Shown here: positions 5,212-15,356 of the stretch, in pieces | Layout: every line of letters begins with the position of its first letter | Numbering within the stretch: the stretch's first letter is position 1 | Source: a virus | Taxonomy: Duplodnaviria; Caudoviricetes | Virus record (IMG/VR): IMGVR_UViG_3300020045_001610 | Coordinates: 1 to 62,439 of that record | Strand: one strand, 5' to 3' | DNA: 62,439 nt | Notes under the pieces: generated by a model | What the model was told of the DNA's origin: nothing | Databases searched by the model: none | Seen by the model: only the letters and a program-made list of their open reading frames with translations | Program-made: the position numbers and the translations under genes

Positions 5212-5616
5212 GTGCCAGCAGCTCCAAGACGCCCCTGTCGCTCGCCAAATTGCGGCGTACTTGGCACAACGCCTTATTGTGAAAAGCATACAATTAAGAA
5301 AGAAGCTGAAGTTCGAGTTGAAAGAATCAAATACGATAAAGAGCGCGGCACTTCGGCAAGTAGGGGTTACGGTAGTCGCTGGTCAACTTACAGTAAGCAA
5401 TTTAGGGTTAATAACCCGCTTTGCTGCATGTGCCTTGAGCGCGGCAAACTTACGAAGGCTGAGTGCGTCGATCACATCATTCCTGTCAGCGGCCCTGACG
5501 ATCCTTTGTTTTGGGAGCCTAGCAATCACCAGTCGCTTTGCCATAGCGACCACTCATTAAAAACGGCCAAGGAAGACGGTGCGTTTGGAAATACGAAAAA
5601 GGATAGGTTTATCTAA
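5212..5616 (+). CDS. packaging-associated HNH endonuclease (HK97 gp74-like)
   Basis: RGYGSRW...NPLCCMC...VDHIIP...NHQSLCH..H..KT; next to TerS. Confidence 0.9.
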   Translation: MPAAPRRPCRSPNCGVLGTTPYCEKHTIKKEAEVRVERIKYDKERGTSASRGYGSRWSTYSKQFRVNNPLCCMCLERGKLTKAECVDHIIPVSGPDDPLFWEPSNHQSLCHSDHSLKTAKEDGAFGNTKKDRFI

Positions 5617-6134
5617 TGGGAACAAATCGCGGCGGCGGCAGACGGCCAACGCCCACACATTTGGCAATCGTGGACAAGGCCCACCAACATCGCCACTATA
5701 ATCAACCCTCCCCCTCAAAGGATTGGCCTGAAGCGCCTGGGCGTCTTTCTGAAGCCGCCAAAGCTATCTTCGATAACTTGGTTGAAACGATAGCTGAACT
5801 ATACCCGCCGTCTGCCTCTCACGTTGAAATGCTTGCCTTGTACGCCGAACATAAAGAACTTGCTATATTCTTGGATGCCTTCTTGCGCGGCTACGATGAA
5901 GTAGAAGACCGTGAAACCGGCGAGTTGCAGCGCGTGTATCGTGGCCTTACTTATCTCAGTGGTAACAACATGATCCGCTCCAGGCCGGAAGTGCAAATGC
6001 TGAAGGATGAACGCAAGGCTTGTACTGACATATTGCGCGAGTTTGGACTTTCCCCCTCGGCGCAGCGTTCGGTGAAAGTTGAGAAAAAACAAGCGGTGAA
6101 AAATGCTTTTGCAGACCTTGACGAAACTGGTTGA
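5616..6134 (+). CDS. terS: terminase small subunit (P27 type)
   Basis: GRRPTPT start, APGRLS, EFGLSPSAQ. Confidence 0.85.
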   Translation: MGTNRGGGRRPTPTHLAIVDKAHQHRHYNQPSPSKDWPEAPGRLSEAAKAIFDNLVETIAELYPPSASHVEMLALYAEHKELAIFLDAFLRGYDEVEDRETGELQRVYRGLTYLSGNNMIRSRPEVQMLKDERKACTDILREFGLSPSAQRSVKVEKKQAVKNAFADLDETG

Positions 6135-6176: not shown

Positions 6177-6264
6177 CAGGTCGGATAGGACTTGTTCACG
6201 AATACGCGAGTATAACTTGCGTTGCTGCCAGCCCCTTCATCGTCTATCCACGTTGTTGGGGCTG
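6177..6264 (+). ncRNA. kissing-loop cis-regulatory RNA, copy 1
   Basis: hairpin loop GGATAG complementary to loop CTATCC; same architecture at 42439-42528. Confidence 0.6.
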
Positions 6265-6282
6265 TGCTATTTTAGGAGTGTT

Positions 6283-9183
6283 ATGAATTACGCCGAAATT
6301 GCATTGCAATATTGTCATGATGTTTTGAACGACACTTTGCCCAATAGGAAAGCTTGTAAATTAGAAAAGCTGTCATGCCAACGTCATCTGAATAACTTGG
6401 CTCAACAGGACGATCCTGACTACCCCTATTATTGCGACGATAGGGCCGGTATTAGGCACGTCAAATTTTTGTCGAAGTTGCGCCACTCAAAAGGAAAATG
6501 GCGAGGCCAGCTTTTTGTTCCAGAACCTCACCAGATTTTTTATCACTTCTGTCTTTTTGCATGGAAGAAAAAATCTACAGGATTTAGAAGATTTAATAAA
6601 GCGTATCTAAAAATACCTCGAAAGAATGGCAAGGCGATTTCGATCAATACCCCTCTTCCAACACCTTTAGGTTGGACAACTATGAGTGAAGTAAAAGTTG
6701 GGGATTTGTTGTTTGATGAAAGTGGTGAAATTTGTACTGTACTTAACGCAAGCCCTGTTGCTTATGATAAGGAATGTTTTAAAGTAACTTTTGATGATAA
6801 CAGCTCGATGGTTGTTGACAAAGAACATTTGTGGACTACTTTCGACGCCGGTTCACGCCAAGCTATATCAAACTCAGGTATTAAAAACTACCCTTCAGAT
6901 TGGCCTGCGTGGAAATCACCTCGCGGTAAACAAGCCAATACTATTGATACGGAGCAAATTTTAAAAACACTTGACGTTAAGCCTGGATATAAAAATCATT
7001 CCATACCTGTGTGTGGTTCGATAAATATGCCTGAAGCAAATCTTGAAGTAGACCCTTTCATTTTAGGGGTTTGGCTGGGAGATGGTTCTAGTTCCTCCGG
7101 TTCTGCTCGTATAGCGGCTGATCATCTTAACGGGGATCAATCTTTAATTCGAGAAGAATTTCATCGCAGGGGTTATTTGACGACTACAATATCAGACCCT
7201 GTTCAATTTACTGTAACGGGTTTATTGCGCCAACTTTTTGATATAGGTGTAGTAAATAACAAACACGTACCTCAGCAATATTTAAGGTCTTCTGTTGAGC
7301 AACGTATGGACTTGCTGCGCGGATTGATGCTGACTGATGGTACAATTACAGTTCAAGGACAAGTGAATTTTGAAAATACAAATGAAAATTTAATCGAATC
7401 TGTTTTAGAACTTGCTGTTTCGTTAGGCCAAAAAGCTCGCAAACAATGCCTCACAAGGTTGACGTTGACTGGCAAATCAGTGTGGAGGGTTGAATGGTCG
7501 CCTACGTTAGATGTATTCGGCTTAGGTAGAAAATCCGAACGATTGAAAATAGGTAGTGCTCAATCAATTCGTCACCATCATAGAATTATTAGGAGTGTTG
7601 TTCCGGTCGAATCTGTTCCGGTAAAATGCATTTCAATTGATTCAAAAAACAATCTATATTTGGCAGGAAGACATTTTGTACCGACCCATAATAGCTTTTC
7701 GTCAGCGGGGATAGGTCTTTATATGGCCTTCGCTGATGGAGAGAATGGTGCGGAATGCTACTGCGCTGCGACAACTGAAGCACAAGCGGGAATGGTGTTT
7801 GCCCCTGCATGGAGCATGGTTCACATGGACAACGACCTGAAGGAGGCATTTGGACTCACTCTTGCGGGTACAATTCGCAACCCCACTAGCATATATCGGG
7901 CAGACGATCTTAGCCGGATGGAACCTATTATAGGTACGCCAAAAGACGGAAGTTCACCGAGCTGCGGAATTTGTGACGAGCTGCATGAGCACCCCTCAAG
8001 GGCTTTATATGACAGCCTTGACACCGGAATGGGTGCTCGCGAAGCCCCACTTTTGGTGGCCATCACGACTGCTGGAATTAACATTTCTTCATTCTGTTAC
8101 GAGCTTGAACTTGAAGCAATTCAAATTTTGGAAGGGACGTTAGAAAAGGAAAATGTTTTTGTAATGATCTTTGGTATTGACGTTGATGACGATTGGCGTG
8201 ACTTTGAAGTATGGCGCAAAGCCAACCCGAATTTAGGCGTAAGTATAAATGAAGAATATCTACTTGGCAAATATCAAGATGCGATGACAAACCTTTCACA
8301 GAGGGCCATTTTGCTCACGAAGCACTGCAACGTTTGGGCCAACGCAGGCGCAATGTGGTGCGATATGAATAAGTGGAATGAAAATGCAAGACCTGATATT
8401 AAAATTGAACAATTCTTAGGTAAAAAAGCAACTATTGCAATTGACCTTGCGAGCAAGATCGACATCGTAGCTGTTGAAATAATGTTTGAACTTGAAGACA
8501 TGCAATACAAAATATGCCCTCGTTGCGGCGAGCAAGTTCTATGGGAAAACGAAACATACATTTGCTCTAAGAACAATGCCGAAGGTGGTTGTAGCTGGCA
8601 GCGTAAATCTTCTAAGCGAACAATGACATTTAGTAAATTTTATTTGCCGGAATCCACCGTGCTGAAGAAGGAAAATAATCATTATCAATTGTGGGCAAAC
8701 GAAGGCTTGCTTACGGTAACTGAGGGTGAGCGAACTGACTTTCAAAAGGTAGAAGAAGATTTACAAGAACTTTGTAAATTGTTTATTGTGAGTGAAATTG
8801 TGTTTGACCCGAAGGAAGCGGCGTATCTCATACAGAACATTCAAAAGTGGTTTGGGGGTGAATGTATCGAATGTAATCAGTCGCCAGCGATGCTTTCTGA
8901 ACCTATGAAAGAGTGCGAAGCGATGATTGTCGATGGATGTTTCCTACATGATGGAAATAAAGTATTGACTTGGATGTTTGGAAACGTTATAAGACGACAA
9001 GGTAAAAGCGGCGGTAATGTTAAGTATGCTTATCCGTCGAAACAAAGTGAAGGATTGAAAATAGACGGAGCCGTGGCCTGTATCACAGGATTGTCACGTA
9101 TAATGACTTACGATACCGATTCGGGAGATTCATACAATGCGCGAGCCGCGAAGGGACAGTTGGAGATATTACGCGTAATTTAA
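6283..9183 (+). CDS. terL: terminase large subunit (intein-containing)
   Basis: Walker A PRKNGK|S split by intein, ICDELHE, ITTAG, IAIDLA, KIDG; AGGAG RBS. Confidence 0.93.
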   Translation: MNYAEIALQYCHDVLNDTLPNRKACKLEKLSCQRHLNNLAQQDDPDYPYYCDDRAGIRHVKFLSKLRHSKGKWRGQLFVPEPHQIFYHFCLFAWKKKSTGFRRFNKAYLKIPRKNGKAISINTPLPTPLGWTTMSEVKVGDLLFDESGEICTVLNASPVAYDKECFKVTFDDNSSMVVDKEHLWTTFDAGSRQAISNSGIKNYPSDWPAWKSPRGKQANTIDTEQILKTLDVKPGYKNHSIPVCGSINMPEANLEVDPFILGVWLGDGSSSSGSARIAADHLNGDQSLIREEFHRRGYLTTTISDPVQFTVTGLLRQLFDIGVVNNKHVPQQYLRSSVEQRMDLLRGLMLTDGTITVQGQVNFENTNENLIESVLELAVSLGQKARKQCLTRLTLTGKSVWRVEWSPTLDVFGLGRKSERLKIGSAQSIRHHHRIIRSVVPVESVPVKCISIDSKNNLYLAGRHFVPTHNSFSSAGIGLYMAFADGENGAECYCAATTEAQAGMVFAPAWSMVHMDNDLKEAFGLTLAGTIRNPTSIYRADDLSRMEPIIGTPKDGSSPSCGICDELHEHPSRALYDSLDTGMGAREAPLLVAITTAGINISSFCYELELEAIQILEGTLEKENVFVMIFGIDVDDDWRDFEVWRKANPNLGVSINEEYLLGKYQDAMTNLSQRAILLTKHCNVWANAGAMWCDMNKWNENARPDIKIEQFLGKKATIAIDLASKIDIVAVEIMFELEDMQYKICPRCGEQVLWENETYICSKNNAEGGCSWQRKSSKRTMTFSKFYLPESTVLKKENNHYQLWANEGLLTVTEGERTDFQKVEEDLQELCKLFIVSEIVFDPKEAAYLIQNIQKWFGGECIECNQSPAMLSEPMKECEAMIVDGCFLHDGNKVLTWMFGNVIRRQGKSGGNVKYAYPSKQSEGLKIDGAVACITGLSRIMTYDTDSGDSYNARAAKGQLEILRVI
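6634..7692 (+). mobile_element. class 3 intein with LAGLIDADG endonuclease (353 aa)
   Basis: starts AISINTP, EHLW, VKCISID, PTHN|S; LGVWLGDG and LRGLMLTDG. Confidence 0.88.
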
Positions 9184-10935: not shown

Positions 10936-11136
10936 ATGTTCAAAAAACTTCTTCGCATAATGCCCGACATGTCTGTCTGCTTATTCCTTCTTGGAATAAT
11001 TGCCGTCTTTTTCGGCGTCTATCAGCTTTCAATCCCCAGTTCATACATTGTACTCGGTATCATGCTTATTGCTACGGCGCTTGTTAAAGCTCGCGCTGAG
11101 GCTATTGCTAAAGCTAAGCCTATTGGTGAAAACTAA
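10936..11136 (+). CDS. small two-TM protein preceding portal
   Basis: two hydrophobic segments; common position in HK97-like phages. Confidence 0.7.
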   Translation: MFKKLLRIMPDMSVCLFLLGIIAVFFGVYQLSIPSSYIVLGIMLIATALVKARAEAIAKAKPIGEN

Positions 11137-12485
11137 TGGGATTTCTCAGTTCGCTCTTTGAAACTCGTGCTTCAGTTGGGCCTTCCGTAAATATTAGCAA
11201 CGGCGGCGATTCGGCGTTAGCAGGTATGTTCGGCGGCACCGCAGGAACGGCTTCAGGCCAGAATGTTAACTCCGACACAGCATTAAAGATTTCTACCGTA
11301 TGGGCTTGCATGAATCGTCGTGGTAAAGCCTTCGCAATGTTACCGCTGCATGTTATGAAGGAATTGCCTGGAAACGGTCATGAGATAGCAAAGTCGCATA
11401 GACTATACAAGCAGATGCACTTGAAGCCTAACGCTTGGCAGACATCGTACGAGTGGCGCTTAACCGGCATGACACATCTTCAATTACGCGGCAACTTCTA
11501 CAATCTGAAGATAAGTACACCAGGACGCGGCCTGAATCAGCTTGTGCCGCTTGATCCTGATAGAATGTGGCCGTTTGTTATCACGCCTGCCGGTATCACC
11601 TATTACCTGAACGACAGCAGCCCAACGCCGCCTGCTGGCTCTAAATTGTTCTATCAGTATTTTGCGGTGAATGCTCAAAGTGAAATCTACACCGCTGACG
11701 AGATATTACATTTCAGGAATACGTCAACCAACGGTATTGTGGGCAAGACGTTAATACGTTTAATGGCTGAATCTGTCGGCCTGTCAATGGCAATGGAAGA
11801 ACAGGGAGCGCGATTGTTTACGAACGGCGCTCAAATTGGCAAGGTGTTTACTCACCCTGCTAAACTGGACGATCCGGCGTTTGACAGACTGAAGAAACAA
11901 CTTGACCAATATTCAGGCGCGGCTAATTCCCACAGAACAATTATACTTGAAAATGGAATGGATATTTCAAGTTTAAGTATGACGATGCAAGACAGCCAAT
12001 TTATTGAATCGAGAAAATTTCAAGTTGAGGACATCTGTTCATATTTAGATATTCCAATGATGCTAATTCATCGTTCGGGCGACAAGAATCAAACGTTTGC
12101 CAGTGCTGAAGTAATCATGCAAATGTTTATAACTTTGAACATGCAGCCTGATTTTGAAAACTTTGAACAGCGTCTTAAAGTAGATTTGCTTTACGACTCA
12201 GAACAAGATTACTATTTCAACTTTGACTTTGATGAACTTATGCGCGGCGATACAGCAGCAAGAGCAAGTTACTATCAGGCGCGTTTAAATACAGGCTCTC
12301 TGACACCGAACGATATTAAACGTAAAGAGGGTGAAAGCCCTTATGCAATGGAAGAGTGTGATGCTGTTTATATGGGTAGCGGTATACAGGCGGCAAAGAA
12401 CGTATTGAATCCGCCTGAGCCTATAGCTAAGCCTGAAGTTAAAGTTGAACCAAAAGTGGAGGACAAAAATAATGGCAAAGAATGA
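11136..12485 (+). CDS. portal protein, HK97 family
   Basis: VWAC...LPL, PNAWQT, LRGNFY, ILENGM, QFIESRKF, LTPNDIK. Confidence 0.95.
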   Translation: MGFLSSLFETRASVGPSVNISNGGDSALAGMFGGTAGTASGQNVNSDTALKISTVWACMNRRGKAFAMLPLHVMKELPGNGHEIAKSHRLYKQMHLKPNAWQTSYEWRLTGMTHLQLRGNFYNLKISTPGRGLNQLVPLDPDRMWPFVITPAGITYYLNDSSPTPPAGSKLFYQYFAVNAQSEIYTADEILHFRNTSTNGIVGKTLIRLMAESVGLSMAMEEQGARLFTNGAQIGKVFTHPAKLDDPAFDRLKKQLDQYSGAANSHRTIILENGMDISSLSMTMQDSQFIESRKFQVEDICSYLDIPMMLIHRSGDKNQTFASAEVIMQMFITLNMQPDFENFEQRLKVDLLYDSEQDYYFNFDFDELMRGDTAARASYYQARLNTGSLTPNDIKRKEGESPYAMEECDAVYMGSGIQAAKNVLNPPEPIAKPEVKVEPKVEDKNNGKE

Positions 12486-12654
12486 AATTAAAATAGTTGA
12501 AGAAGTAAAGCCCGAACTTACAGTGGCCGAACTTCAGCAGGAAATTTTTAACGTTAAACTTCGGTACGATTCTTTGCTGAACTATCTTAAACCTCTTCTT
12601 TCACATGACGCGCTTGTTCTTCTTGCTGAAAAGAAAAAGGAGATATTTGCATGA
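12472..12654 (+). CDS. hypothetical protein coupled to portal and bfr
   Basis: GGAGG RBS; overlaps both neighbours. Confidence 0.55.
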   Translation: MAKNEIKIVEEVKPELTVAELQQEIFNVKLRYDSLLNYLKPLLSHDALVLLAEKKKEIFA

Positions 12655-13121
12655 AAGTTTCCGGCGATATAATCAACATGCTAAACGCTCGTTTGGCTGA
12701 AGAACATGCTGCTTATGTTCAATACACTACTCATGCAAGTATGGTGGCTAATCAAGGCTACGCTAAACTTGCAGCTTACATCAAAGAACGTGCTGAACAA
12801 GAACGCGAACATGCTCAGGAACTTATTGATCGTATTCTTTTTCTCGAAGGTACTCCAATCTTTGAAATAGTTGCTCCTGTAACTGTGGGTAAAGATGTTG
12901 TTGAAATGTTTCCTCTTGACCAAACTTCTGAGATTAACGCTATTGCTGGTTACGCTGAAGGTATTAAGATTTGTATGGCAAGCAACGACTTTGGTACACG
13001 TAGGTTGCTTGAGCATATTCTTGAAGAAGAAGAATCACACCTTAACAAAATTGAAGAAAATATAAAGCAGATTGTAAATTCTGGAATTGAGAACTATTTG
13101 ATTGTTCAAATTTCAGAATAA
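12651..13121 (+). CDS. bfr: bacterioferritin (heme-ligand Met52 replaced by Arg)
   Basis: colinear with Bfr: E18, Y25, E51, H54, E94, E127, H130; RILFLEG.P; GIENYL. Confidence 0.9.
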   Translation: MKVSGDIINMLNARLAEEHAAYVQYTTHASMVANQGYAKLAAYIKERAEQEREHAQELIDRILFLEGTPIFEIVAPVTVGKDVVEMFPLDQTSEINAIAGYAEGIKICMASNDFGTRRLLEHILEEEESHLNKIEENIKQIVNSGIENYLIVQISE

Positions 13122-13131
13122 AGGAGTTTTT

Positions 13132-14061
13132 ATGAAACCTGAAATTAGAGATTTTGGAATTGAAATGGAACGAAGAACCTATGCAGCAGAACTGCGTATA
13201 GAACCTCCTTCCATTGGAAAGAGAACTCCGACAATAAGAGGTTACGCTGCAAAGTTTAATAGTCTTAGTGAAGTAATGCCGATGAAAGATGCTGACGGTA
13301 AGCAGATTTACTTTCGCGAGCAACTAATGCCAGGTTGCTTTGCAACAGCAATTCCAGTGTCTGACGTGCGTAGTTTATTCAACCATGATGTAAATCTCAT
13401 CATGGGGCGTACTTTGGCAGGTACTTTGAGAATTAAGGAAGACGACGTTGGTTTAGCATTTGAGAACGACCCGCCCGACACAACGTACTCACGCGACTTG
13501 CAAATTTCAATGCAACGGGGCGACATTACAAACTGTAGCTTTGGTTTTAACGTAGCTGCGAAAGGTGATAGTTGGGAACGCGATAGCGCAAACCCAGGTC
13601 AGTTTATTCGATCTATTCATACTATATCACGGCTGTATGATGCAAGTCCTGTGACGTATCCTGCTTACGTAGATACATCTTGCGCTCTGCGTTCAATGCA
13701 CTCTCAGATTGATGTTGAAGAAGCTGCTGAATCAAAAGCCGCCGCAGATAAATTGGAAGAACAACGCAAAATGGAAATGGAAAGTTTGGAATTGGAATTA
13801 ATGTTAGCCGAACATGATTCCGAAGGCTCTCCTGAAAAACGGGTAGACATGGGTTACGCTTCTTACAACACAATAGGCACTTGTGAGGAATGTAACGAAG
13901 AAGGTTGTCTTTGCCCAACTTGCGAAAATGTTAAAAATTGTACCCTTATGACTAAATCTGAAGGAGGTACTTGCACCAAATGTATGAAGCCTAGATGCCT
14001 GTGTTTAACGTGTCCAAATACCGACAAAGCCACGTTGATGAAGATGAACTATTTGTATTAA
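13132..14061 (+). CDS. HK97 prohead protease with Cys-rich C-terminal extension
   Basis: GYAAKFN, FREQ, LFNHD, GRT..GTL, CSFGF, SPVTYPAY. Confidence 0.92.
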   Translation: MKPEIRDFGIEMERRTYAAELRIEPPSIGKRTPTIRGYAAKFNSLSEVMPMKDADGKQIYFREQLMPGCFATAIPVSDVRSLFNHDVNLIMGRTLAGTLRIKEDDVGLAFENDPPDTTYSRDLQISMQRGDITNCSFGFNVAAKGDSWERDSANPGQFIRSIHTISRLYDASPVTYPAYVDTSCALRSMHSQIDVEEAAESKAAADKLEEQRKMEMESLELELMLAEHDSEGSPEKRVDMGYASYNTIGTCEECNEEGCLCPTCENVKNCTLMTKSEGGTCTKCMKPRCLCLTCPNTDKATLMKMNYLY

Positions 14062-14111
14062 GCAGAGCTGTAAACCCGCGAGGGAATTTTAAGTAATAAA
14101 AGGAGATTCAA

Positions 14112-15356
14112 ATGGCAACTTTGAACGAACTCCGCGATCTTCGCGGGACGGCAGTAGCAGAAGCACGAAAGATTAAAGACACCGCCGATGCAGCGGGTCG
14201 CCCCCTGAGTGCTGAGGAAAGATCAAATTTCGATCTTTACATGAACGATTCGATTAAGTACAAAGCTCAGATTGATGACGAAGTTCGTCTTCAGGACACT
14301 GAGCGGGAACTGGCAACTGTAGCAATTGCTGCCGCTGCTGACACACGCGGTAAAGGTGCAGACCCTCGGGATGAGTTTCGGGCTGACGCTTTCCGCAAGA
14401 TGATTTTGCAGGGTGAGCGTCATCTGAACATTGACGAACTGAACTCGCTCACCAAAGAGCTGATTACCACTCGCGGTCTTTCTGCCGGTACTGACATCAA
14501 GGGTGGTTTTACTCTCACCCCACAGGAATTTGTCAATCAGCTCCTGGTCAACGTCAAGAACCGTGTGTTTATGCGTGGACTTGCTACCATCATCCCTCTC
14601 AACGGTTCGATGTCTTGCGGCGTTCCTACCCTTGATACCGATGTTGGCGATGCTGATTGGACTCCTGAAGTTGGAACTGTCGGCGAAGACACCAACATGG
14701 AATTTGGCAAGCGTGAACTGAAACCACATCCTCTGTCCAAAATGGTTAAGGTTTCCGAACCTCTCCTGCGTAACTCCGCTCTGCCGGTTGAAGGTATTGT
14801 CAATGATCGTATGGGCTACAAGTTCGGCGTGGCAATGGAGAAGGCCTACCTGACCGGCAACGGCTCGCAGCAGGCTCTTGGTGTATTCACTGCAAGTGCT
14901 GATGGCGTTCCTACTTCTCGCGATATTTCCGAAGGCAATACCGCAACGGAAATCACCGCAGACAACCTGATTGCTGTTAAGTACAGCCTGAAGGCTCAGT
15001 ACATGAGCACAGCACAGTGGCTGTTCCACCGTGACGCTATCAAACAGCTCGCACAGCTCAAAGACGGCAATGGTCGTTATATGTTTGACCTTTCCGACAA
15101 ATCCGGTGTGCCTGATATGCTGCTCGGTCGCCCCCTGATGATGTCTGAATATGCACCTAACACTTTCACCACAGGTCAGTATGTGGGTATGTTTGCAGAC
15201 TTCTCACACTACTGGATTGCAGACAGTCTCGCACTTCAGTTCCGAAGATTGAACGAGCTGTTTGCTCTGAACAATCAGATCGGTTTTATCGCCCGTATGG
15301 AAACAGACGGAATGCCAACCCTCAGTGAAGCCTTCAGCAGAATCAAGTTGGGGTAG
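14112..15356 (+). CDS. major capsid protein, HK97 fold with delta domain
   Basis: N-terminal coiled coil, GGFTLTP, LTGNG, LKDGNGRY, ADFS. Confidence 0.95.
   Translation: MATLNELRDLRGTAVAEARKIKDTADAAGRPLSAEERSNFDLYMNDSIKYKAQIDDEVRLQDTERELATVAIAAAADTRGKGADPRDEFRADAFRKMILQGERHLNIDELNSLTKELITTRGLSAGTDIKGGFTLTPQEFVNQLLVNVKNRVFMRGLATIIPLNGSMSCGVPTLDTDVGDADWTPEVGTVGEDTNMEFGKRELKPHPLSKMVKVSEPLLRNSALPVEGIVNDRMGYKFGVAMEKAYLTGNGSQQALGVFTASADGVPTSRDISEGNTATEITADNLIAVKYSLKAQYMSTAQWLFHRDAIKQLAQLKDGNGRYMFDLSDKSGVPDMLLGRPLMMSEYAPNTFTTGQYVGMFADFSHYWIADSLALQFRRLNELFALNNQIGFIARMETDGMPTLSEAFSRIKLG

Follow-up and report, generated by a model that had tools for sequence, protein, structure and literature searches.

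A bacterioferritin-type gene without the heme ligand in the head operon of a tailed phage

The IMG/VR virus record IMGVR_UViG_3300020045_001610 was analysed over its whole stretch of 62,439 bp (hereafter the window; estimated completeness, 81%). Its head genes form one tight string, in which a 60-residue open reading frame (ORF) and a gene for a 156-residue bacterioferritin (Bfr)-type ferritin, here called bfr, lie between the genes for the portal and the S78 prohead protease, followed by the gene for the HK97-type capsid protein. The features of this region are as follows (E, expectation value).

11136..12485, plus strand: portal, 449 residues (PF04860, E 6e-82; phrog_12, E 9e-95), also the upstream neighbour of bfr in related loci
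12472..12654, plus strand: 60-residue ORF, no family match in Pfam, PHROG or NCBIfam
12651..13121, plus strand: bfr, 156 residues (PF00210, E 7e-31; TIGR00754, 110.2 bits; Bfr chains of the PDB, E ~1e-23)
12804..12806, plus strand: codon 52 of bfr, CGC (Arg), where canonical Bfrs have Met52, the axial ligand of the inter-subunit heme (sequence and alignment)
13132..14061, plus strand: HK97-type prohead serine protease, 309 residues (PF04586, E 2.4e-40; TIGR01543, 81.2 bits against a cut-off of 59)
13882..14058, plus strand: Cys-rich C-terminal tail of the protease, from Cys251, with two CxxC-x4-CxCxxC repeats
14112..15356, plus strand: major capsid protein, 414 residues (PF05065, E 1.7e-53, residues 134-412; phrog_10)

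The ATG of the 60-residue ORF (12472) is located inside the last 14 bases of the portal gene, and its TGA (12652-12654) is overlapped by the ATG of bfr (12651) in the sequence ATGA. The TAA of bfr (13119-13121) runs into AAGGAG, and the ribosome-binding site of the protease gene begins within this stop codon, ahead of the protease ATG at 13132. These junctions are exactly as described in the initial annotation, which was made from the sequence alone. No terminator-like site was found on the plus strand between 12485 and 14061. The single plus-strand promoter-like site near bfr (12646-12673, 10/12 matches) lies across its start codon, and the head region as a whole holds 15 such sites against 14.5 ± 4.1 in shuffled sequences. 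Since the genes overlap or abut and no terminator-like site separates them, the arrangement points to co-expression, and probably co-translation, of bfr with the head genes. The G+C content at third codon positions (GC3) is 0.255 in bfr, 0.311 in the 60-residue ORF, 0.438 in the portal gene, 0.355 in the protease gene and 0.520 in the capsid gene; the low value of bfr could reflect either a foreign origin or codon choice. The capsid protein carries a scaffold-like N-terminal region ahead of its HK97-type domain, which starts at residue 134. Among sequencing runs, the region 11136-15356 appears in four DNA rows with shares of 0.05-0.09 and no RNA row is listed, which has no bearing on expression or habitat.

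The window ferritin aligns without gaps to E. coli Bfr (PDB 1bcf), from residues 3-156 to residues 3-156 (E 3e-21), and 56 PDB sequences match it at E ≤ 0.001, the best at 1.8e-23. It scores 107.5 bits against the Pfam Ferritin model (cut-off 24.5) and matches the bfr equivalog model TIGR00754 over its full length. An AlphaFold monomer model from a 19-row alignment, with a predicted local distance difference test score of 94.1, contains helices at residues 5-34, 38-64, 83-110, 114-144 and 146-151, which correspond to the four-helix bundle and the short fifth helix (helix E) of the Bfr-type architecture. In Foldseek, the model superposes on Pseudomonas aeruginosa BfrB over all 156 residues with a template modeling (TM) score of 0.97 and a root-mean-square deviation (RMSD) of 1.1 Å, and many Bfr chains match at a TM score of 0.97 and an RMSD of 1.0-1.2 Å.

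The alignment to 1bcf places every ferroxidase ligand, as the initial annotation had stated: E18, E51, H54, E94, E127 and H130 are all present, together with Y25. In the family alignment, E18, Y25, E51, H54, E94 and E127 are kept in 121 of the 121 sequences, including 35 that lack Met52, and H130 in 120. Residue 52 of the window ferritin is Arg, and its codon CGC differs from ATG at all three bases, in agreement with the earlier remark that no one-base error can account for it. Sequence comparison thus confirms the window gene as one for a full-length Bfr-type ferritin with a predicted intact di-iron site and a lost heme ligand. The product would be a working heme-free ferritin, for which cage assembly, iron oxidation and the absence of heme are predicted. 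In PHROG, the window ferritin has no match, and the same holds for six of seven other viral ferritin-like proteins tested. The ferritin of L012 has two weak matches to families of unknown function (E 0.002 and 0.005), and that of L017 a weak 40-residue match to an unknown family (E 0.0006); here and below, L-numbers denote matched contig loci and P-numbers matched database proteins.

At E ≤ 1e-5, a protein search gave 345 matches, 120 of which were listed. Among these listed matches, the 37 nearest proteins (54-90% identity) are set apart, and the others do not exceed 48% identity save P0038-P0040 (all 49%). In nine other contigs, a bfr gene is located directly upstream of the S78 protease gene, with the HK97-type capsid gene next wherever the contig reaches it and the portal gene upstream in eight, L016 starting inside bfr. 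This count covers matched loci, so that the roughly 35 closest proteins (P0001-P0038) are included only where a locus matched. The nine contigs are as follows, loci of one contig being joined by a slash.

L002/L007; L003/L008; L004; L005/L009; L006/L010/L026; L011; L012; L016/L053; L027

The position of bfr in the window is therefore not a one-off insertion, the case that the initial annotation had named as telling against its interpretation. Relative to the window, identity in the nine contigs ranges from 87% down to 51% for the ferritin and falls to 44% for the capsid protein. The head-operon ferritins form one clade with a support of 98 in a 93-row tree and 97 in a 67-row tree, and the ratio of nonsynonymous to synonymous substitution rates (dN/dS) among them is 0.068-0.253 in the 13 of 28 pairs with unsaturated dS. 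By these sequence comparisons, bfr is confirmed as a conserved resident of the head operon under apparent purifying selection. No match to the head module was found in a phage collection by blastn, and a tblastn search of the same collection with the ferritin yielded eight records, all below 60% identity and bacterial-type or unverified/unannotated, none of them like the window lineage. A scan of one genome per species across 185,579 species, in which the best 80 loci were kept, gave cellular Bfrs of 35-47% identity, the best being 47% identical. None of these 80 loci has a portal, protease or capsid match, and thus no prophage copy was found among them.

These results bear on the possibility that bfr is a recently acquired host gene that came to lie in the head operon by chance and is carried neutrally. 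The GC3 of bfr, at 0.255 lower than the 0.36-0.52 of the head genes on either side, would fit such a passenger, as would the readiness of its site to accept many different inserts, described below. On the other hand, bfr has persisted in relatives with capsid proteins of only 44-60% identity, its dN/dS is 0.07-0.25, and no cellular relative above 47% identity was seen among the best 80 loci of the species-genome scan. A neutral passenger is therefore very unlikely on the sequence evidence.

The loss of Met52 can be placed within the phage clade. Three contigs with the same synteny (L012, L016 and L027) keep Met52; in the 93-row tree they form, with P0031-P0033 and P0037, the basal branches of the clade. 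In the subclade nested above them, residue 52 is Arg, Lys, Gln, Leu or Val in 39 of 39 rows. This non-Met subclade is supported at 93 by the 93-row tree but at only 40 by the 67-row tree. The trees are compatible with one Met52 loss in the clade. Since the basal members with the same synteny keep Met52, the heme ligand seems to have been lost later than the gene was captured. The initial annotation had also considered that the nearest cellular Bfrs might lack Met52 as well. This is not so: Met52 is present in 76 of 76 metagenome loci of non-phage context and in 79 of 80 species-genome loci. The sole exception (L165, 2097-2564) comes from an Elusimicrobia metagenome-assembled genome; this Bfr has Arg52, and its neighbours are cellular genes for AHSA1-like, cupin and amino-acid permease proteins. 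Because Met52 is present in all the nearest non-phage relatives, the phage clade lies outside the cellular heme-free clade, and the Met52 loss is, as judged from these sequences, independent and internal to the phage clade rather than inherited from cellular heme-free Bfrs.

The substitution at residue 52 is accompanied by changes on the surrounding helix-B face. A comparison of 37 non-Met sequences of the phage clade with 157 cellular sequences gave the following residues.

Position 26: F/I/M in cellular Bfrs; T/S/K in the non-Met clade
Position 49: I in cellular Bfrs (136/157); N/E/D in the non-Met clade
Position 52: M in cellular Bfrs; R/K/Q in the non-Met clade
Position 53: K in cellular Bfrs; E in the non-Met clade (33/37)
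Position 56: E in cellular Bfrs; Q in the non-Met clade
Position 57: K in cellular Bfrs; E in the non-Met clade (36/37)

Residues 49, 53 and 56 are ones that we take to line the heme pocket of Bfr. Residue 26 is described as a heme contact in the accessible text of a published report (PMC10301331); the other reports cited below are likewise used as far as their accessible text goes. In the non-Met clade, the heme pocket thus seems to have been swapped for a polar, probably salt-bridged dimer interface.

Heme-free Bfr subunits with an intact ferroxidase centre are an established class in hetero-oligomeric Bfrs (PMC12120770, PMC12867745, PMC11303784), in which they form homodimers specialised for oxidation (PMC12120770, PMC11303784). 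Bfr1 of Shewanella oneidensis, Bfr1 of Magnetospirillum and the Ftn subunit of Acinetobacter baumannii resemble the window ferritin in keeping the ferroxidase centre without Met52, as far as those reports describe them. They differ from it in that the phage record holds no partner heme-binding subunit, a single ferritin match being found in the 62-kb record (81% complete), and in that the Met52 loss of the phage clade is independent.

This class suggests another use of the phage protein, in which phage homodimers would mix with host Bfr dimers in 24-mers and poison or retune them, raising oxidation while diluting the heme and Bfd sites. Natural hetero-Bfrs combine heme-free ferroxidase dimers with heme-binding dimers, and extra Bfr subunits join mixed cages in proportion to their expression (PMC12120770, PMC12867745, PMC11303784); the window protein has exactly the profile of a subunit with a ferroxidase site and without heme. 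Mixing would have to occur, however, with a Bfr to which the phage protein is distant: identity to any cellular Bfr found is only 35-47%, and the phage clade stands outside the cellular heme-free clade, its nearest non-phage relatives carrying Met52. We consider such interference with host Bfr quite improbable.

The distribution of bfr among close relatives, defined by a portal at least 50% identical to that of the window, was followed in two portal-based scans. A Bfr-like gene stands directly after the portal gene in 11 of the 14 evaluable loci of one scan (L234, cut at the portal, is uncounted), and in 13 of 16 close relatives when L004 and the contig of L008 are added. It is missing from L222, L224 and L230. 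The capsid proteins of L222 (= L217) and L224 (= L218) are 60-63% identical to that of the window, closer than those of several bfr-bearing relatives, and in these loci the portal gene abuts the protease gene or only an ORF weakly similar to the 60-residue ORF lies between them (26% over 43 residues; L218). Since three close relatives do without it, bfr is, by this comparison, an accessory gene that is apparently dispensable for head building. Being a homologue of a cellular metabolic gene, dispensable and patchily distributed among related phages, it has the properties of an auxiliary gene.

Among 65 more distant loci (portal 30-37% identical), none of the 52 with at least 1,500 nt after the portal gene shows a Bfr-like match. 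The portal and protease genes abut in 12 of the 47 distant relatives with a recognisable S78 protease and are separated in the other 35 by an estimated 311-2215 nt, mostly with small ORFs; ten small ORFs from these gaps belong to no ferritin family in Pfam. From this variety of contents, the portal-protease slot is judged to be a general insertion hot spot.

Two supposed partnerships of bfr were examined, one with the Cys-tailed protease, which the initial annotation had joined to it in an iron-handling head module, and one with the 60-residue ORF. Among seven related loci, homologues of the 60-residue ORF occur in two (L004 and L008), unrelated ORFs take its place in L009 and L011, and nothing is present in L007, L012 and L027; the weakly similar ORF of L218 belongs to a locus without bfr. 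The 60-residue ORF is thus, on sequence grounds, a variable slot filler and no conserved partner of bfr. The Cys tail of the protease, about 59 residues following a coiled coil, is present in the window and in L007 alone among the seven related loci, the other proteases ending at the coiled coil. We considered it as a Bfd-like or other known metal domain, but it belongs to no Pfam family and has no Fer2_BFD match, and all Atlas structure rows have TM scores below 0.5. It may be a small metal-binding domain that is brought into the procapsid. Of the earlier interpretation, a conserved Bfr without heme ligand in the head operon therefore stands, and the ties to the Cys-tailed protease and to the 60-residue ORF fall away.

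A gene for a GIY-YIG homing endonuclease is placed precisely between the bfr-like and protease genes in four related contigs, and the bfr-protease junction appears to be a homing site. The protein of L008 also carries NUMOD3 domains. The positions are as follows.

L008, 6474-7190: GIY-YIG gene
L228, 5250-5930: GIY-YIG gene
L229, 5769-6516: GIY-YIG gene, split into two ORFs
L231, 4767-5657: GIY-YIG gene

Some Bfr-like proteins in this slot have lost metal ligands. The protein of L223 (5323-5787) keeps Met52 and has Lys18 and Gln54 in place of E18 and H54. In L228, L229, L231, L232 and L233, whose portals are 50-51% identical to that of the window, the Bfr-like ORFs are intact and most metal ligands are gone. 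These five copies have 143-147 residues (196 in L233) and keep N-terminal and 'RILFLxG' motifs, and those of L228, L229, L231 and L232 stop before helix E. Over the six divergent copies, dN/dS is 0.23-1.10 in the 13 of 15 pairs that could be estimated, and below 1 in 12 of these 13. They may be either decaying or serving without iron chemistry.

The second of these possibilities raises the question of whether the window protein, too, has a role apart from iron storage, for example in helping assembly, in binding a host factor or as a di-iron enzyme of the peroxidase kind, its ferritin chemistry being incidental. The loss of E18 and H54 in L223, the persistence as ORFs of the five copies with few ligands and, L233 apart, no helix E, and a separate viral family described below, in which E51 and H54 are kept in 0 of 25 members and helix D is very conserved, all fit such a role. 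The window clade itself speaks against it, since its ferroxidase ligands are invariant under strong selection and the window protein keeps the full Bfr architecture, including helix E. The degenerate copies are under weaker selection (dN/dS 0.23-1.1) and outright losses of the gene occur, which fits decay equally well. A role without iron storage is improbable for the window protein.

Ferritin-like genes are also found in head modules unrelated to that of the window. A search with the family alignment gave 20 viral loci, 12 of them in a head module, and eight of these 12 belong to the window lineage. In L015, a Bfr gene (Val52) follows MuF-like and neck genes and precedes the protease and capsid genes; in L023 and L024, a Bfr gene (Leu52) lies between the large terminase and portal genes; in L017, lambda-like protease/scaffold (C), D and E genes are followed by a Bfr gene (Arg52). 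Another head-module locus, L025 (5381-5842), encodes a 153-residue protein of Bfr fold and belongs to a separate viral family of 26 contigs or loci (including L188-L213) at 50-100% identity, which corresponds to an Atlas cluster of 75 members, mostly with a viral label. The alignment of 25 members shows E18, E94 and H127 without exception, but E51 has given way to Ala, Thr or Ser and H54 to an aromatic residue in all of them, and 21 have His at residue 52. Conservation is very high in helix D ('RNLFEHLLKWHQKH'). The gene follows a portal gene in at least 20 of the 26 loci (in L209 by PF05136), the portals being of two Pfam families, and precedes genes for ClpP-type, S49 or S78 proteases or for a capsid-domain fusion protein. 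Pairs of members share 50-66% identity even when the identity of their portals is only 26-35%. In L204 (3811-7058), the gene is located between two PF05065 (Phage_capsid) genes, of 391 and 502 residues.

Viral loci outside a head context keep Met52, namely L013, which lies among nucleotide-modification genes, L014, L018-L021 and L022. The 67-row tree requires a minimum of five changes between Met and non-Met. A link between head context and Met52 loss was examined on this tree and is suggestive only: only two independent contrasts exist on starred branches, both in the same direction, and three on all branches, with a sign-test p of 0.5.

The recurrence of ferritin-like genes in head modules of unrelated types (the window lineage, L015, L023/L024, L017 and the 26-contig family) favours the possibility that the ferritin is associated with the virion. 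Whole cages or dimers would enter the procapsid, perhaps close to the portal, and would remain in the head to scavenge iron or protect DNA from within, much like the ferritin-like cargo enclosed by encapsulins. The persistence of degenerate, ligand-less copies in the slot is in line with a place in the particle. In addition, a ferritin-like protein was detected in particles of phage G (PMC12484599) and host Bfr in CsCl-purified virions of AXL1 (PMC9206674), although purified virions may be contaminated by ferritin cages, which are dense. As in encapsulin systems with ferritin-like cargo (EncFtn/Flp), the ferritin-fold gene of the window lies close upstream of the gene for an HK97-fold shell.

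The resemblance to encapsulin systems does not extend to the proteins. The scores of the window ferritin against the cargo models TIGR04535 and NF058679 are 26.7 and 28.9 bits against cut-offs of 125 and 90, from partial matches that cover helices C-D only; the window ferritin is of the full-length Bfr type, which forms 24-mers, and its shell gene is a true phage capsid gene accompanied by portal, protease and terminase genes. Since the TIGR00754 match spans 1-156 of the 157 model positions, there is no N- or C-terminal extension able to act as a loading peptide; the C-terminus ends as those of cellular Bfrs do and resembles them, in keeping with the earlier remark that no encapsulin-type loading peptide is visible. 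No longer forms fused to head proteins were found for the window ferritin or for the L025-type protein, which is weak evidence. Further points against loading are that heads are built without bfr in three close relatives, that the ferritin is strongly acidic (pI 4.75, charge -13), and that the link between head context and Met52 loss comes down to two or three independent contrasts. Since the slot is an insertion hot spot, position alone is weak evidence for cargo.

Virion association is thus rather unlikely for the window protein. The broader proposal that ferritin-fold proteins are a recurrent, optional internal part of tailed-phage heads, and that the window protein is loaded and kept there as a heme-free iron-scavenging cage, we hold to be decidedly unlikely. 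If it were true, phage capsids would carry ferritin cargo as encapsulins do, head modules of this kind could mark the road between HK97 capsids and iron-storing encapsulins, and the 26-contig family and the ligand-less copies would be structural descendants of the same habit. Our full-text search of the literature found no paper on ferritin-like genes embedded in the head modules of several unrelated phage types; their recurrence makes ferritin cargo in phage heads a directly testable question.

The explanation that we prefer, to which we give an even chance, is that the window ferritin forms a late-expressed, heme-free ferroxidase cage and serves the phage as a one-way iron sink, an optional accessory to infection. 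An ordinary Met52 Bfr would have been captured by an ancestor of the lineage and lodged in the permissive portal-protease slot. Since this slot lies between head genes, the ferritin would be made late, together with the head proteins. It would assemble into a Bfr-like cage, and its intact ligands and purifying selection suggest that Fe2+ is oxidised at the conserved di-iron site and stored as mineral. With the heme lost and the pocket rebuilt as a polar, charged face, the electron route back to the core would be gone and iron uptake would become effectively one-way, as published work on heme-free Bfrs suggests. The M52L variant of Bfr loses heme and releases iron more slowly (PMC12120770), and a block of the release mediated by heme and Bfd leads to irreversible iron accumulation (PMC11303784). 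The phage would benefit by the removal of free Fe2+, and hence of Fenton chemistry, during DNA replication and packaging. No match to a Bfd-type ferredoxin (Fer2_BFD) was found in the record, 81% complete, and none of the 20 larger ORFs that were scanned was seen to encode an iron-demanding enzyme that the ferritin might supply.

Several observations weigh against a one-way sink. The M52L variant is also slower at oxidation, so that heme loss is not a pure gain (PMC12120770). The TIGR00754 score of the window ferritin, 110.2 bits, lies below the curated cut-off of 125.55. His19, beside the ligand E18, is present in 43 of 43 phage-clade sequences, where 145 of 157 cellular Bfrs have Leu, and another mode of heme binding may therefore be possible. 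The persistence of L228, L229, L231, L232 and L233 as ORFs without most ligands hints at a function free of iron chemistry, and the recurrence of ferritin-like genes in unrelated head modules is explained by an iron sink only through the timing of expression.

The window ferritin has in common with E. coli Bfr (1bcf) and P. aeruginosa BfrB (4tob) its length, the collinearity over residues 3-156, the fold (TM score 0.97), the six di-iron ligands and Tyr25. It differs from canonical Bfr in Arg52, in the polar or charged face formed by positions 26, 49, 53, 56 and 57, in its score below the TIGR00754 cut-off, in the place of its gene in a phage head operon and in the lack of a Bfd gene in the record. 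Engineered variants of E. coli Bfr at Met52 were reportedly heme-free in the hands of Andrews et al. in 1995. PDB 8w8z, one of the Foldseek matches, is an M52H variant of Bfr. Compared with engineered variants of this residue, the change in the window lineage is natural and clade-wide, and the whole face of the pocket is remodelled. Virus-encoded bfr has been described as an auxiliary gene under purifying selection, with an average dN/dS of 0.114 and a viral operational taxonomic unit predicted to infect Bathyarchaeia (PMC10904782); the window gene resembles it in being a virally encoded bfr homologue whose purifying selection speaks for function, and the accessible text of that report is silent on a head-operon position and on the heme ligand. 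A Nitrosospira phage is another virus for which a bfr gene is listed (bioRxiv 10.64898/2026.05.02.722434). Our full-text literature search found neither a Bfr in a head-morphogenesis operon nor the loss of the heme ligand in a phage Bfr.

If the one-way sink is correct, this phage lineage manipulates the iron of the cell late in infection with a ferritin that has evolved into a one-way trap. It would be the natural equivalent both of the engineered Met52 variants and of heme-free hetero-Bfr subunits. One and the same slot also presents a graded series, from Met52 with a ferroxidase site, through the ferroxidase site only, Met52 with partial loss of the ferroxidase site and the loss of both, to deletion of the gene. 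This series can be used to ask which functions of Bfr are separable.

Elsewhere in the record, the scan of 20 larger ORFs revealed no integrase, and no tRNA gene was found, which suggests a lytic phage. The replication side of the genome (36711-56478) encodes a helicase, an AAA_24 protein, an ATP-dependent ligase, ThyX, a C5 cytosine methylase, a GIY-YIG protein and a primase-polymerase-like protein of 797 residues. The terminase genes lie upstream of the head string.

5616-6134: small terminase (PF05119)
6217-9183: large terminase, 988 residues

The terminases of relatives align to the large terminase at residues ~22-142 and 488-988 only. The roughly 350 residues between the aligned parts include a LAGLIDADG_3 match (residues 363-408), and the ATPase domain of the terminase seems to be interrupted by an intein that contains a homing endonuclease.

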